From Escherichia coli (lineage in GTDB: Bacteria; Pseudomonadota; Gammaproteobacteria; Enterobacterales; Enterobacteriaceae), in the NCBI RefSeq assembly GCF_024502345.1, contig NZ_JALDNN010000001.1: 64,000 nt of DNA; one strand, 5' to 3'. Both the position numbers and the translations under genes were made by a program. The notes beneath the pieces were generated by a model, which was not told the DNA's origin, made no database searches, and worked only from the letters and a program-made list of their open reading frames with translations. Shown here in pieces: positions 56,266-59,630 of this stretch. Within the stretch, counting starts at the first letter, position 1, and every line of letters begins with the position of its first letter.

Positions 56266-57192
56266 ATGTTTGAACGAAACAGAGAGGCAACTATGATTTT
56301 CAATATTCAGCGCTACTCGACCCATGATGGCCCCGGTATCCGCACGGTCGTATTTCTTAAAGGCTGTTCGCTGGGCTGCCGCTGGTGTCAGAACCCGGAA
56401 AGCCGCGCCCGCACGCAGGATCTGCTGTATGACGCACGACTGTGTCTGGAAGGCTGCGAGCTGTGCGCTAAGGCCGCGCCGGAAGTGATTGAGCGCGCGC
56501 TGAATGGTTTGCTTATTCATCGGGAAAAGTTAACCCCGGAGCATCTGACGGCGTTAACCGACTGCTGTCCGACACAGGCATTAACCGTGTGTGGTGAAGT
56601 GAAAAGCGTTGAGGAGATCATGACGACCGTTCTGCGCGATAAACCGTTTTACGATCGCAGCGGCGGCGGTTTAACGCTTTCGGGTGGTGAACCCTTTATG
56701 CAGCCGGAAATGGCGATGGCGCTACTGCAAGCCAGCCACGAGGCAGGCATTCATACTGCGGTAGAAACCTGTCTGCATGTGCCGTGGAAATATATCGCCC
56801 CTTCTCTGCCCTATATCGATCTGTTTCTTGCCGATTTAAAACACGTTGCCGACGCGCCGTTTAAACAGTGGACCGACGGTAACGCCGCCAGAGTGCTGGA
56901 TAACCTGAAAAAACTCGCCGCAGCGGGCAAAAAAATCATTATCCGCGTGCCGCTGATTCAGGGCTTTAATGCCGACGAAACCTCTGTAAAAGCCATTACC
57001 GATTTTGCCGCCGACGAGCTGCACGTTGGCGAAATTCATTTTCTGCCCTACCACACGCTGGGCATCAACAAATATCACTTACTTAATCTGCCCTATGACG
57101 CCCCGGAAAAACCGCTTGATGCGCCAGAACTGCTCGACTTTGCCCAGCAGTATGCCTGCCAGAAAGGGTTAACCGCGACCTTACGAGGATAA
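56266..57192 (+). CDS. ybiY: glycyl-radical-enzyme activating protein (radical SAM) YbiY
   Basis: 308-aa ORF; radical-SAM motif [13 protein letters not shown] plus ferredoxin-like Cys clusters; start could instead be the ATG at 56293. Confidence 0.85.
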
Positions 57193-57197
57193 CAACC

Positions 57198-59630
57198 ATG
57201 ACCACACTGAAACTGGACACGCTCAGCGACCGCATTAAAGCGCACAAAAATGCGCTGGTGCATATTGTGAAACCGCCAGTCTGTACCGAGCGCGCGCAGC
57301 ACTATACCGAGATGTATCAACAACATCTCGATAAGCCGATCCCGGTACGTCGCGCGCTGGCACTGGCGCATCACCTGGCGAATCGCACCATCTGGATCAA
57401 ACACGATGAGTTGATCATTGGCAACCAGGCAAGCGAAGTTCGCGCCGCGCCGATCTTCCCGGAATATACTGTCTCGTGGATCGAAAAAGAGATTGATGAT
57501 CTGGCAGATCGTCCCGGTGCTGGCTTTGCGGTGAGCGAAGAGAACAAACGCGTTCTGCATGAAGTGTGCCCGTGGTGGCGCGGTCAGACCGTACAGGATC
57601 GCTGCTACGGCATGTTTACCGATGAGCAAAAAGGTCTGCTGGCGACCGGAATCATTAAAGCGGAAGGCAATATGACCTCCGGCGATGCGCACCTGGCGGT
57701 GAATTTCCCGCTGCTGCTGGAAAAAGGTCTTGATGGTCTGCGTGAGAAAGTAGCGGAACGTCGCTCGCGCATCAATCTGACGGTGCTGGAAGATTTACAT
57801 GGCGAACAATTCCTGAAAGCGATTGATATCGTGCTGGTGGCAGTCAGTGAACACATTGAACGTTTCGCTGCCCTGGCGCGTGAAATGGCTGCTACCGAAA
57901 CTCGCGAAAGCCGTCGCGATGAACTGCTGACGATGGCAGAAAACTGCGATCTTATCGCCCACCAGCCGCCGCAGACTTTCTGGCAGGCGCTGCAACTGTG
58001 TTACTTCATCCAATTGATTTTGCAGATCGAATCTAACGGTCACTCGGTATCGTTTGGTCGTATGGACCAGTATCTCTACCCGTACTATCGCCGCGACGTT
58101 GAACTCAACCAGACGCTGGATCGCGAACACGCCATCGAGATGCTGCATAGCTGCTGGCTGAAACTGCTGGAAGTGAACAAGATCCGCTCCGGCTCACACT
58201 CAAAAGCCTCTGCGGGAAGTCCGCTGTATCAGAACGTTACCATTGGCGGACAAAATCTGGTTGATGGTCAACCAATGGATGCAGTGAATCCCCTCTCTTA
58301 CGCGATCCTCGAATCCTGCGGTCGCCTGCGTTCCACTCAGCCTAACCTCAGCGTGCGTTACCATGCAGGAATGAGTAATGATTTCCTCGACGCCTGCGTA
58401 CAGGTGATCCGTTGCGGCTTCGGGATGCCGGCGTTCAACAACGACGAAATCGTGATCCCGGAATTTATTAAACTCGGTATTGAACCGCAGGACGCTTACG
58501 ACTACGCAGCGATTGGTTGTATCGAAACCGCCGTCGGTGGCAAATGGGGCTATCGCTGTACCGGCATGAGCTTTATCAACTTCGCCCGCGTGATGCTGGC
58601 GGCGCTGGAAGGCGGGCGTGATGCCACCAGCGGCAAAGTGTTCCTGCCACAAGAAAAAGCGTTGTCGGCAGGCAACTTTAACAATTTCGATGAAGTAATG
58701 GACGCGTGGGATACGCAAATCCGTTATTACACGCGTAAATCAATCGAAATCGAATATGTCGTCGACACCATGCTGGAAGAGAACGTACACGATATTCTCT
58801 GCTCGGCGCTGGTGGATGACTGTATTGAGCGAGCGAAAAGTATCAAGCAAGGCGGCGCGAAATATGACTGGGTTTCTGGCCTGCAGGTTGGCATTGCCAA
58901 CCTCGGCAACAGCCTGGCGGCAGTGAAGAAACTGGTATTTGAACAGGGCGCGATTGGTCAGCAACAGCTGGCTGCCGCACTGGCGGATGACTTCGATGGC
59001 CTGACTCATGAGCAACTGCGTCAGCGGCTGATTAACGGTGCGCCGAAGTACGGCAACGACGATGATACCGTCGATACGCTGCTGGCTCGCGCTTATCAGA
59101 CCTATATCGACGAACTGAAACAGTACCATAACCCGCGCTACGGTCGTGGTCCGGTTGGCGGCAACTATTACGCGGGTACCTCGTCTATCTCCGCTAACGT
59201 ACCGTTTGGCGCGCAAACTATGGCAACACCGGACGGGCGTAAAGCCCACACCCCGCTGGCAGAAGGCGCAAGCCCGGCCTCCGGTACTGACCATCTTGGC
59301 CCTACTGCGGTCATTGGCTCGGTGGGTAAACTGCCTACGGCAGCGATTCTCGGCGGCGTGTTGCTCAACCAGAAACTGAATCCGGCAACGCTGGAGAACG
59401 AATCTGACAAGCAGAAGCTGATGATCCTGCTGCGCACCTTCTTCGAGGTGCATAAAGGCTGGCATATTCAGTACAACATCGTTTCCCGCGAAACGCTGCT
59501 GGAGGCGAAAAAACATCCGGATCAGTACCGCGATCTGGTAGTGCGTGTCGCGGGTTATTCCGCCTTCTTCACCGCGCTCTCTCCAGACGCTCAGGACGAT
59601 ATCATCGCTCGTACTGAACATATGCTGTAA
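57198..59630 (+). CDS. ybiW: glycyl radical enzyme (pyruvate formate-lyase-like) YbiW
   Basis: 810-aa ORF; C-terminal glycyl-radical motif RVAGYSA; immediately downstream of its activase. Confidence 0.9.
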   Translation: MTTLKLDTLSDRIKAHKNALVHIVKPPVCTERAQHYTEMYQQHLDKPIPVRRALALAHHLANRTIWIKHDELIIGNQASEVRAAPIFPEYTVSWIEKEIDDLADRPGAGFAVSEENKRVLHEVCPWWRGQTVQDRCYGMFTDEQKGLLATGIIKAEGNMTSGDAHLAVNFPLLLEKGLDGLREKVAERRSRINLTVLEDLHGEQFLKAIDIVLVAVSEHIERFAALAREMAATETRESRRDELLTMAENCDLIAHQPPQTFWQALQLCYFIQLILQIESNGHSVSFGRMDQYLYPYYRRDVELNQTLDREHAIEMLHSCWLKLLEVNKIRSGSHSKASAGSPLYQNVTIGGQNLVDGQPMDAVNPLSYAILESCGRLRSTQPNLSVRYHAGMSNDFLDACVQVIRCGFGMPAFNNDEIVIPEFIKLGIEPQDAYDYAAIGCIETAVGGKWGYRCTGMSFINFARVMLAALEGGRDATSGKVFLPQEKALSAGNFNNFDEVMDAWDTQIRYYTRKSIEIEYVVDTMLEENVHDILCSALVDDCIERAKSIKQGGAKYDWVSGLQVGIANLGNSLAAVKKLVFEQGAIGQQQLAAALADDFDGLTHEQLRQRLINGAPKYGNDDDTVDTLLARAYQTYIDELKQYHNPRYGRGPVGGNYYAGTSSISANVPFGAQTMATPDGRKAHTPLAEGASPASGTDHLGPTAVIGSVGKLPTAAILGGVLLNQKLNPATLENESDKQKLMILLRTFFEVHKGWHIQYNIVSRETLLEAKKHPDQYRDLVVRVAGYSAFFTALSPDAQDDIIARTEHML

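Follow-up and report, generated by a model that had tools for sequence, protein, structure and literature searches.

The ybiY-ybiW locus and its neighbours

The window (the whole 64-kb stretch of Escherichia coli DNA that was analysed) carries a gene pair encoding a glycyl radical enzyme and its activase, flanked by fsaA, ybiV and ybiU:

55500-56162, minus strand: fsaA, fructose-6-phosphate aldolase 1 (220 aa; NF009296 443 bits, PF00923), divergent from ybiY
56293-57192, plus strand: ybiY, radical-SAM glycyl-radical-enzyme activase (299 aa)
57198-59630, plus strand: ybiW, glycyl radical enzyme (810 aa; G786, C441, E443, H165 and N280-G-H-S283)
59776-60591, plus strand: ybiV, Cof-type HAD-IIB sugar phosphatase (271 aa, intact; TIGR00099 217 bits, PF08282)
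60743-62008, plus strand: ybiU, DUF1479/PF07350 protein, a pseudogene in this strain

The initial annotation had placed the pair beside fsaA on the opposite strand and ahead of ybiV, which is the arrangement found, except that fsaA is divergent and so not strictly 'upstream'. Both genes of the pair are intact and are separated by 5 nt, with an AGGA Shine-Dalgarno sequence for ybiW. The longest open reading frame for ybiY in the ORF listing (56266-57192) would encode 308 residues and the RefSeq start at 56293 gives 299. A GAGAGG Shine-Dalgarno sequence lies ∼7 nt 5' of 56293, the protein made from this start aligns with the whole TIGR02494 profile, beginning at residue 2, and the Yersinia and Mixta orthologues are also 299 residues long; the true start is thus probably 56293, with 56266 being 27 nt too early.

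The locus is present in 5425 of 5426 complete E. coli genomes and belongs to the E. coli core genome, in keeping with its earlier description as normal backbone DNA. In Yersinia similis and Mixta calida, too, fsa and ybiY-ybiW are transcribed divergently, and yciT orthologues adjoin the cluster; ybiV is absent from both of these loci and ybiU from that of Yersinia. In the strain analysed, FsaA has the private substitutions P38T and P87L, the latter two residues from the Schiff-base Lys85 (no complete genome is more than 99.7% identical here), YbiV differs from the K-12 protein by four substitutions, and ybiU has lost its start codon (ATG to ATA, 60745) and gained an amber stop (TGG to TAG, 61445-61447). 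As a pseudogene, ybiU is dispensable in this lineage. The private fsaA and ybiU mutations could be read as decay of the whole pathway; this was set aside as unproven, since ybiY, ybiW and ybiV are all intact and the window is in any case 0.2-0.4% diverged from every complete genome.

Candidate regulatory sites

Published work shows that the DeoR-family regulator YciT represses ybiY, ybiW, ybiV, ybiU and fsaA, with YciT ChIP-exo peaks, and that deletion of yciT derepresses ybiY (+7.7 log2), ybiU (+7.0), ybiV (+2.2) and also ybiW. The ybiY promoter is active anaerobically; YciT leaves a footprint there that covers the RNA polymerase site, and an activator left unnamed in that study leaves another (10.1101/2025.05.13.653802). 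In the piglet gut, Shigella has raised levels of YbiW protein. The following elements were found in the non-coding DNA of the locus:

56226-56239: FNR/CRP-type box TTGAC-GCAC-ATCAA between fsaA and ybiY (9/10 to TTGAT-N4-ATCAA)
56245-56258: O1, candidate YciT site, a CTTTC-ATTC-GAAAG inverted repeat overlapping the ybiY promoter
59638-59662, plus strand: GC-rich hairpin without a U-run, 8 nt past the ybiW stop (-17.4 kcal/mol, z = -2.4)
59693-59705, plus strand: O2, candidate YciT site, CTTTCATTCGAAA, 70 nt 5' of the ybiV start
60714-60726, minus strand: O3, candidate YciT site, CTTTCATTCGAAA, 17 nt 5' of the ybiU start

The 13-mer CTTTCATTCGAAA occurs as three exact copies at the locus, which are the candidate operators O1, O2 and O3. 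O1 is invariant across three genera (E. coli, Yersinia and Mixta) and a similar candidate operator lies 5' of the Mixta ybiU orthologue. No convincing match to the candidate operator was seen at the yciT locus, the pflD/frw locus or the locus of a distant homologue, and an operator of the form CTTTCNTTCGAAAG was not found at the pflD/frw locus.

The box at 56226-56239 is the only TTGA-N6-TCAA sequence in the window. In E. coli, Yersinia and Mixta its half-sites are invariant and its centre is variable. We hypothesize that it is an anaerobic activator site common to the divergent fsaA and ybiY promoters: YciT shuts the cluster off, as published, and the published anaerobic switch-on would probably act through FNR at this conserved box. 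A literature search returned no published FNR site for ybiY or ybiW, and a search of the Reg-Seq preprint supplements for promoter coordinates found none. A generic scan for σ70 promoters and terminators gave counts no higher than those for shuffled sequences and did not pick out the ybiY promoter; it also made no call at the hairpin after ybiW, which may be a weak or partial terminator with possible read-through into ybiV. An Rfam scan of 55000-62500 returned only REP-type naRNA4, which lies outside the operon. The additions made by the present analysis are small: the candidate operators, the FNR-type box, the yciT linkage in Yersinia and Mixta, and the ybiU and fsaA changes of this strain.

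Active site of YbiW and its probable reaction

YbiW has the features of the glycyl radical enzyme superfamily, namely a PFL-like barrel (PF02901, E = 1.8e-209), a C-terminal glycine-radical domain (PF01228, E = 1.6e-32), a catalytic Cys and an adjoining activase gene. It scores 1409 bits against TIGR01774 (the PFL2/glycerol dehydratase family; cut-off 678), and the radical glycine, G786, lies in the motif RVAGYSA at residues 783-789, as the initial annotation had noted. The call of YbiY as a radical-SAM activase was likewise correct: it has Radical_SAM and Fer4_12 domains, a CX3CX2C motif (C25, C29 and C32) and a TIGR02494 score of 370 bits (cut-off 174). The accompanying claim of extra ferredoxin-like Cys clusters survives in part. 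An insert of ∼64 residues, absent from PflA in the alignment, does follow the CX3CX2C motif and does bear Cys residues, but there are only six of them (C51-x3-C55-x2-C58, C91-C92-Pro and C100) against the full eight (two CX2CX2CX3C) in two relatives in the alignment, so that no more than one complete set of four ferredoxin-like Cys, or one auxiliary cluster, could be built from them.

The catalytic loop of YbiW is GCIE (residues 440-443), with a single Cys, C441, followed by E443. The pattern G-C-[IVT]-E is kept in PflD and in nine homologues of 39-54% identity, whereas PflB has CCVS. C441 aligns with C433 of the Clostridium butyricum glycerol dehydratase and with C419 of PflB; E443, H165 and the NGHS motif align with E435, H164 and H281/S282 of the dehydratase, in which H164 is the His that hydrogen-bonds the leaving group. 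The G-C-x-E loop, the equivalent of H164 and NGHS are the features of the 1,2-eliminase ('dehydratase') clade, and comparison with characterized dehydratases and lyases, the check proposed at the outset, thus gives an active site of eliminase type and not one like that of PflB.

The substrate of the K-12 enzyme has been published. As summarized in section 5.1 of PMC12441222, Ma et al. (JACS 2024, 146:26187) report that YbiW cleaves 1,5-anhydroglucitol-6-phosphate (AG6P) to 1-deoxyfructose-6-phosphate. According to the same summary, YbiW and PflD open 1,5-AG6P and 1,5-anhydromannitol-6-phosphate (1,5-AM6P, the C2 epimer) to this one product in a glycyl-radical-dependent manner, YbiW being paired with AG6P and PflD with AM6P, and the reaction enables growth on 1,5-anhydroglucitol (1,5-AG; PMC12441222). 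We therefore consider, with a probability of roughly 0.9, that YbiW is the glycyl radical enzyme with which E. coli opens the AG6P ring and that YbiY is its activase, on the basis of orthology to the characterized K-12 enzyme (99.5% identity, in the same locus and with the same neighbours). This role of the pair is already known, and the earlier description of the pair as functionally under-characterized is out of date: substrate and product were published in 2024 and crystal structures have been deposited (PDB entries 8ID7, 8YJN and 8YJO). A published unrelated substrate would have counted against the original expectation of sugar or sugar-phosphate chemistry; an assignment does exist, but its substrate is a sugar-phosphate analogue, so that it updates the annotation without contradicting that expectation.

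In the glycyl radical enzyme family the radical-SAM activase cleaves S-adenosylmethionine under anoxia and takes a hydrogen from the radical glycine. In this pair the activase is YbiY, with a [4Fe-4S] cluster on C25, C29 and C32, and the glycine is G786 of YbiW. The catalytic steps proposed here are inferred from the relation of substrate to product and from the conserved diol-dehydratase residues. The glycyl radical would generate a thiyl radical on C441, which would abstract the C2 hydrogen of AG6P while the C2 hydroxyl loses its proton to E443. Departure of the ring oxygen O5 from C1 would follow, a spin-centre-shift 1,2-elimination in which the leaving group is the ring ether and not a hydroxyl, and the C441 thiol would return a hydrogen to C1 to give 1-deoxyfructose-6-phosphate, which the divergently transcribed FsaA would then split. 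FsaA reportedly gives glyceraldehyde-3-phosphate and hydroxyacetone from this compound, the latter being reduced to 1,2-propanediol, and the pathway is said to allow anaerobic growth on 1,5-AG. Published work on FSA shows that it uses dihydroxyacetone and unphosphorylated analogues, hydroxyacetone among them. Neither a PTS nor a kinase for 1,5-AG was found linked to the E. coli locus.

Two wider readings concern the flanking genes. It is conceivable, if doubtful, that the four transcription units with exact copies of CTTTCATTCGAAA (fsaA/ybiYW, ybiV and ybiU) form a single YciT-controlled module for 1,5-anhydro-sugar phosphates, in which the FNR box switches fsaA and ybiYW on under anoxia, YbiU is the oxygen-dependent counterpart of YbiW and YbiV is an AG6P phosphatase. 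YbiU, whose HxD...H iron-binding triad is kept from E. coli to fungal Gig2, might hydroxylate C1 of AG6P to give glucose-6-phosphate directly, and YbiV might act as a safety valve against AG6P, a toxic dead end, in the manner of human G6PC3. Only the anaerobic branch of such a module is solved. The dispensability of ybiU in this strain and the absence of ybiV from the Yersinia and Mixta loci run counter to it. These same two observations, with the absence of ybiU from the Yersinia locus, also weigh against a somewhat less probable reading, that AG6P is one accepted substrate and that the gut substrates are other or broader anhydro- or deoxy-sugar phosphates, with YbiV and YbiU processing related compounds. 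This reading draws on the exact operator that ybiV and ybiU share, on their derepression with ybiYW while having no assigned step, on the lack of a dedicated linked transporter in E. coli and on the varied sugar contexts of the homologues; the growth on 1,5-AG and the YbiW/AG6P and PflD/AM6P specificity in the summary cited above (PMC12441222) speak against it.

A role for YbiW as a small-diol (glycerol or 1,2-propanediol) dehydratase, like the C. butyricum and Roseburia enzymes, is very improbable. Among older structures YbiW does most resemble 1R8W (E = 1.6e-163) and 5I2A (E = 5e-151), and it shares their Cys/Glu/His/NGHS catalytic set. However, Asp447 of the glycerol dehydratase, which reportedly binds the C3 substrate at its terminal hydroxyl, aligns with Gly456 beside a two-residue insertion, and the loop that follows (WGYRCTGMSF) differs. 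There are no 1,3-propanediol dehydrogenase or microcompartment genes near ybiW, its conserved partners being an aldolase, a sugar phosphatase and a DeoR regulator of sugar-phosphate type, and the substrate given in the published summary is a hexitol phosphate. Least credible is a third pyruvate (or 2-ketoacid) formate-lyase isozyme: the PFL-like fold is present, the K-12 record and many source names keep 'putative pyruvate formate lyase / formate C-acetyltransferase' and older papers count ybiW among the alternative PFLs, but identity to PflB is 23.9%, G440-C441 replaces the Cys-Cys pair, Glu443 a Ser and H165 an Arg, the PFL equivalog TIGR01255 gives 162 bits against a cut-off of 994, and the published summary names AG6P as the substrate. 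Both the PFL and glycerol dehydratase readings were rejected on active site and gene context, which agrees with the initial annotation in favouring sugar-phosphate over PFL chemistry.

YbiW as an AG6P ring-opening enzyme is relevant to gut microbiology and to human 1,5-AG biology; this significance belongs to the published work and not to the present window. By the 2024 study, the reaction lets gut bacteria ferment AG6P. The review that summarizes the pathway (PMC12441222) attributes the neutropenia of G6PC3 deficiency and GSD Ib to AG6P, a toxic metabolite. The practical value of the present analysis is an annotation update. RefSeq/PGAP and the 2026 version of the preprint 10.1101/2025.05.13.653802 still treat ybiYW as unannotated; the names in NCBI and RefSeq are 'glycyl radical protein' or 'putative pyruvate formate lyase', and the preprint describes the genes as without functional annotation.

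Comparison with known systems

A word-index protein search with YbiW returned relatives that are all at least 86% identical and all from Enterobacterales; more distant homologues were reached through a representative protein library and occur in varied sugar contexts. One of 54% identity adjoins a ROK sugar kinase, a HAD phosphatase and a DeoR regulator.

The closest characterized system is the K-12 pair itself (b0823/b0824; PDB entries 8ID7 and 8YJN), with the same locus, the same neighbours and all catalytic motifs intact here. YbiY is identical to its K-12 counterpart. YbiW is identical at 806 of 810 residues (99.5%), the four substitutions (E184K, A245T, H474R and D769E) all lying outside the catalytic motifs, and is ∼99% identical to PDB entries 8ID7 and 8YJN ('Probable dehydratase YbiW'), which both also carry engineered surface changes. 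The Arg at position 474 is also present in PDB entry 6XS4. Among the flanking genes, ybiU is a pseudogene here and FsaA has the two substitutions noted above.

PflD/PflC (b3951/b3952; PDB entry 8YJO) is the next system. PflD has the fold and the RVAGYSA motif of YbiW, with G-C-V-E as its catalytic loop, but the two are 38.9% identical, and PflD has NASS in place of NGHS and TYGLHDIAMF in place of WGYRCTGMSF; pflD lies within the frw PTS operon, whereas ybiW lies beside an aldolase gene. The B12-independent glycerol dehydratase of C. butyricum (1R8W/1R9D), in which the catalytic Gly, Cys, Glu, His and NGHS all align with those of YbiW, follows the same 1,2-elimination logic, but its leaving group is the hydroxyl of a C3 diol rather than the ring ether oxygen of a phosphorylated hexitol, and its genomic context is unlike that of ybiW. 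PflB shares the glycyl-radical fold and a C-terminal RV(S/A)GY with YbiW, and PflA shares CX3CX2C with YbiY but is without its 64-residue Cys-bearing insert.

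The ybiY–ybiW locus

The window belongs to the E. coli chromosome; its 56000–60000 segment is matched in 5425 of the 5426 complete E. coli genomes (90–99.8% identity), and the genes annotated under these matches are fsa, ybiY, ybiW and ybiV. The region was said to be part of the K-12 backbone, and this is borne out. The genes are as follows, with moeA and moeB lying farther left than fsaA in both the ORF list and RefSeq.

55500–56162, − strand (opposite to ybiY–ybiW), fsaA, RefSeq form
56266–57192, + strand, ybiY, longest ORF in the ORF list, 308 aa
start at 56293, + strand, ybiY, RefSeq form, 299 aa
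57198–59630, + strand, ybiW, ORF list, 810 aa
59776–60591, + strand, ybiV, ORF list and RefSeq
60743–62008, ybiU (DUF1479/Gig2-like), pseudogene in this strain

Both ORFs of the pair flagged in the initial annotation are present, but the ybiY start at 56266 needs a small correction. We prefer 56293 because it is preceded by a GAGAGG Shine–Dalgarno sequence, with none ahead of 56266, because the TIGR02494 match begins at residue 2 of the shorter protein (299 aa), because the Yersinia similis and Mixta calida orthologues are also 299 aa long and because the nine additional codons of the longer form run into the promoter/operator region. Only 5 nt separate the ybiY stop from the ybiW start, which is preceded by an AGGA Shine–Dalgarno sequence; the two genes therefore form an operon.

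YbiY is identical to its K-12 counterpart and YbiW differs only by E184K, A245T, H474R and D769E. The window is 0.2–0.4% diverged from every complete genome, so private changes are expected. FsaA carries P87L (55903, codon 87) and P38T (56051, codon 38), and a fully identical fsaA was not found in any complete E. coli genome (best match 99.7%). Pro87 is two residues from Lys85, which we take to be the Schiff-base lysine; we draw no functional conclusion from these private changes. In ybiU the start codon is changed from ATG to ATA (60745), a change absent from K-12, DS26-1 and PI24, and an amber codon (TGG to TAG, 61445–61447) interrupts the frame before the distal, conserved His residues are reached. 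Over a 91-base stretch spanning this amber codon, 100% identity was seen in only four of the 5426 complete genomes (PI24, MB07011 and UCPROB-001/002), where RefSeq calls ybiU a pseudogene with an internal stop. The question of YbiU and YbiV falls outside the flagged coordinates (56266–59630).

Several side observations were made. Rfam places an naRNA4 (REP-type nucleoid-associated RNA, 79.6 bits) at 55334–55411 (−), between moeB and fsaA. A query with 40000–64000 hit numerous places in each genome (median 26), its left end (around 40000) aligning with the IS1A transposase gene of strain B-1109. In strain DS26-1 an IS621 copy separates ybiU from ybiT; the window lacks it at that place (62009–62248). 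In just one database entry (P0007, 1047 aa), YbiW (100% identity, query coverage 92%) is continuous with HAD/YbiV-type domains; faulty assembly or gene calling, or a deletion fusing ybiW with ybiV, is the probable cause.

Neighbourhoods and candidate regulatory sites

The gene order is fsa (−), ybiY, ybiW and a DeoR-family gene in Y. similis (locus L003), and a DeoR-family gene, the ybiU orthologue (PF07350), fsa (−), ybiY and ybiW in M. calida (L005); ybiV is missing from both loci. The DeoR-family genes are orthologues of yciT, which in E. coli lies ∼480 kb away from fsa–ybiY–ybiW.

L003 12847–13602, yciT orthologue of Y. similis, DeoR-family, 64% identical to K-12 YciT
L005 5910–6674 and 6807–8075, yciT orthologue (59% identical to K-12 YciT) and ybiU of M. 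calida

In another locus (L007 5258–15652) a 54%-identical YbiW homologue has among its neighbours a DeoR regulator, a HAD phosphatase resembling YbiV, an ROK sugar kinase and a lyxose-isomerase-like cupin. No activase gene is adjacent to this homologue; a second glycyl radical enzyme (GRE) and activase pair 2 kb downstream may supply it. Other YbiW homologues (44–46% identity) have an adjacent activase. These neighbourhoods independently indicate sugar-phosphate metabolism.

YciT ChIP-exo peaks have been assigned to ybiY (signal/noise 45) and ybiV (24), deletion of yciT derepresses ybiY (+7.7 log2), ybiU (+7.0), ybiW and ybiV (+2.2), and ybiV, ybiU, fsaA and ybiY are the proposed repression targets of YciT (PMC8464067). 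A Reg-Seq preprint reports ybiY promoter activity only under anaerobic conditions, a YciT footprint covering the polymerase site, displaced from the ChIP-exo peak by ∼100 bp towards ybiY, and the footprint of an unassigned activator ∼15 bp upstream of the YciT footprint (10.1101/2025.05.13.653802). The exact 13-mer CTTTCATTCGAAA occurs at three places in the window and nowhere else in it.

56245–56257, upstream of ybiY
59693–59705, upstream of ybiV
60714–60726, − strand, 17 nt upstream of ybiU

By simple arithmetic, ∼0.002 additional exact occurrences of a random 13-mer would be expected in 128 kb (both strands). Upstream of ybiY the copy forms a full inverted repeat, CTTTC-ATTC-GAAAG, which Yersinia and Mixta preserve in the invariant form CTTTC(A/T)TTCGAAAGT; a near copy also stands ahead of the ybiU orthologue of Mixta. 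Distances between the copies and the published ChIP-exo peaks are ∼100–170 bp, and the ChIP-exo literature reports no peak for the copy ahead of ybiV. The ybiY copy is at 863546–863559 in NC_000913.3, and the ChIP-exo coordinates are apparently those of NC_000913.2. With a conversion shift of +778, which we assume from older ybiY coordinates, it lies ∼105 bp from the peak, in agreement with the remark in the preprint. The three sites are probably the YciT operators.

An FNR-type box lies between the divergent fsaA and ybiY genes, 5 nt upstream of the operator of ybiY.

56226–56239, TTGACGCACATCAA (TTGAC-GCAC-ATCAA), matching nine of ten FNR consensus positions

It is the only match to TTGA-N6-TCAA in the window, and one match per 64 kb is expected by chance, so the count proves nothing by itself. 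Across the three genera its half-sites are invariant, its centre is variable and the 5-nt spacing to the operator is fixed. The centre would be at −41.5 for ybiY if the −10 element is TTTAAT (56262–56267), and at about −40.5 for fsaA if the −10 element is GATAGT on the other strand. We hypothesize that this box binds FNR and is the activator site of the Reg-Seq preprint; a literature search for ybiY or ybiW with FNR found no paper describing or linking an FNR site.

Active site, substrate and proposed mechanism

The pairing of a GRE with its activase stands. YbiW contains PFL-like (PF02901, E = 1.8e-209) and glycine-radical (PF01228, E = 1.6e-32) domains, and residues 783–789 are RVAGYSA, with G786 as the radical glycine. 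It scores 1409 bits against TIGR01774 (PFL2/glycerol dehydratase subfamily; cut-off 678) and falls below the cut-off of every equivalog model (162 versus 994 bits for pyruvate formate-lyase). YbiY scores 370 bits against the GRE-activase model TIGR02494 (cut-off 174) and has the radical-SAM CX3CX2C motif at C25/C29/C32. The initial annotation described extra ferredoxin-like Cys clusters; relative to PflA there is indeed a Cys-bearing insert of 64 residues (37–100), but it has only six Cys residues (C51-x3-C55-x2-C58, C91-C92-Pro and C100), and two relatives in the same alignment have two full CX2CX2CX3C motifs. The insert thus appears to be degenerate ferredoxin-like, its Cys residues sufficing for no more than one auxiliary cluster.

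For the proposed active-site comparison, YbiW was aligned to the glycerol dehydratase of Clostridium butyricum and also to a set made up of PflB, PflD and nine homologues (39–54% identity). Residues C433/E435 of the glycerol dehydratase correspond to C441/E443 of YbiW (G-C-I-E), H164 to H165 and the NGHS motif to N280-G-H-S283, whereas Asp447 is replaced by Gly456, adjoining a different loop (WGYRCTGMSF). In PflB (23.9% identity) the Cys loop reads Cys-Cys-Val-Ser and Arg occupies the H165 position; PflD (38.9%) keeps G-C-V-E and has NASS in place of NGHS. These similarities and differences therefore place YbiW in the eliminase clade. Its Cys loop, H165 and low identity to PflB rule out a pyruvate formate-lyase, and Gly456 with its loop rules out a glycerol dehydratase. 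PDB entries 8ID7 and 8YJN are named 'Probable dehydratase YbiW' and 8YJO 'Probable dehydratase PflD'.

According to a review, a PTS phosphorylates 1,5-anhydroglucitol (1,5-AG) and 1,5-anhydromannitol, after which YbiW and PflD cleave the 6-phosphates (AG6P and AM6P); this cleavage requires a glycyl radical, is strictly anaerobic and yields 1-deoxyfructose-6-phosphate, and it opens growth on 1,5-AG to E. coli and many gut bacteria (PMC12441222). Sugar-phosphate rather than pyruvate formate-lyase chemistry, as initially suggested, is thus upheld by the reported substrate AG6P and the eliminase-type active site, while the description as functionally under-characterized expired in 2024 with this substrate assignment (PMC12441222). 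The donor range of FSA covers dihydroxyacetone and unphosphorylated analogues, hydroxyacetone being accepted. FsaA or FsaB reportedly splits 1-deoxyfructose-6-phosphate into glyceraldehyde-3-phosphate and hydroxyacetone, which is consistent with this range, and GldA is said to reduce hydroxyacetone to 1,2-propanediol. Such an FSA step downstream of YbiW would account for the conserved divergent fsa gene.

The literature supplies the substrate, product and glycyl-radical dependence; we infer the order of steps from the substrate-to-product relation and the conserved Cys, Glu and His. YbiY would form G786•, which would hand the radical to C441; the thiyl radical would take the H atom from C2 of AG6P, with E443 accepting the proton of the C2 hydroxyl. 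Cleavage of C1–O5 would follow as a spin-centre-shift elimination, the leaving group being the ring ether, probably protonated via H165, and C441-SH would return an H atom to C1 to give the methyl ketone. AG6P and AM6P are epimeric at C2, and with that carbon turned into a carbonyl they would give one common product, which fits two paralogous enzymes supplying one aldolase.

Annotation lags behind this literature: ybiW is named 'putative pyruvate formate lyase' or 'glycyl radical protein' (K-12 record NC_000913.3 860174–863511; RefSeq PGAP), pflD keeps the name 'putative formate acetyltransferase 2', and the preprint, in a version dated 2026, describes ybiYW as without functional annotation (10.1101/2025.05.13.653802). 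ybiY–ybiW is a system already known, found here at its customary chromosomal place, to which the present work adds only a base-pair-level reading of the probable operators and a candidate FNR site.
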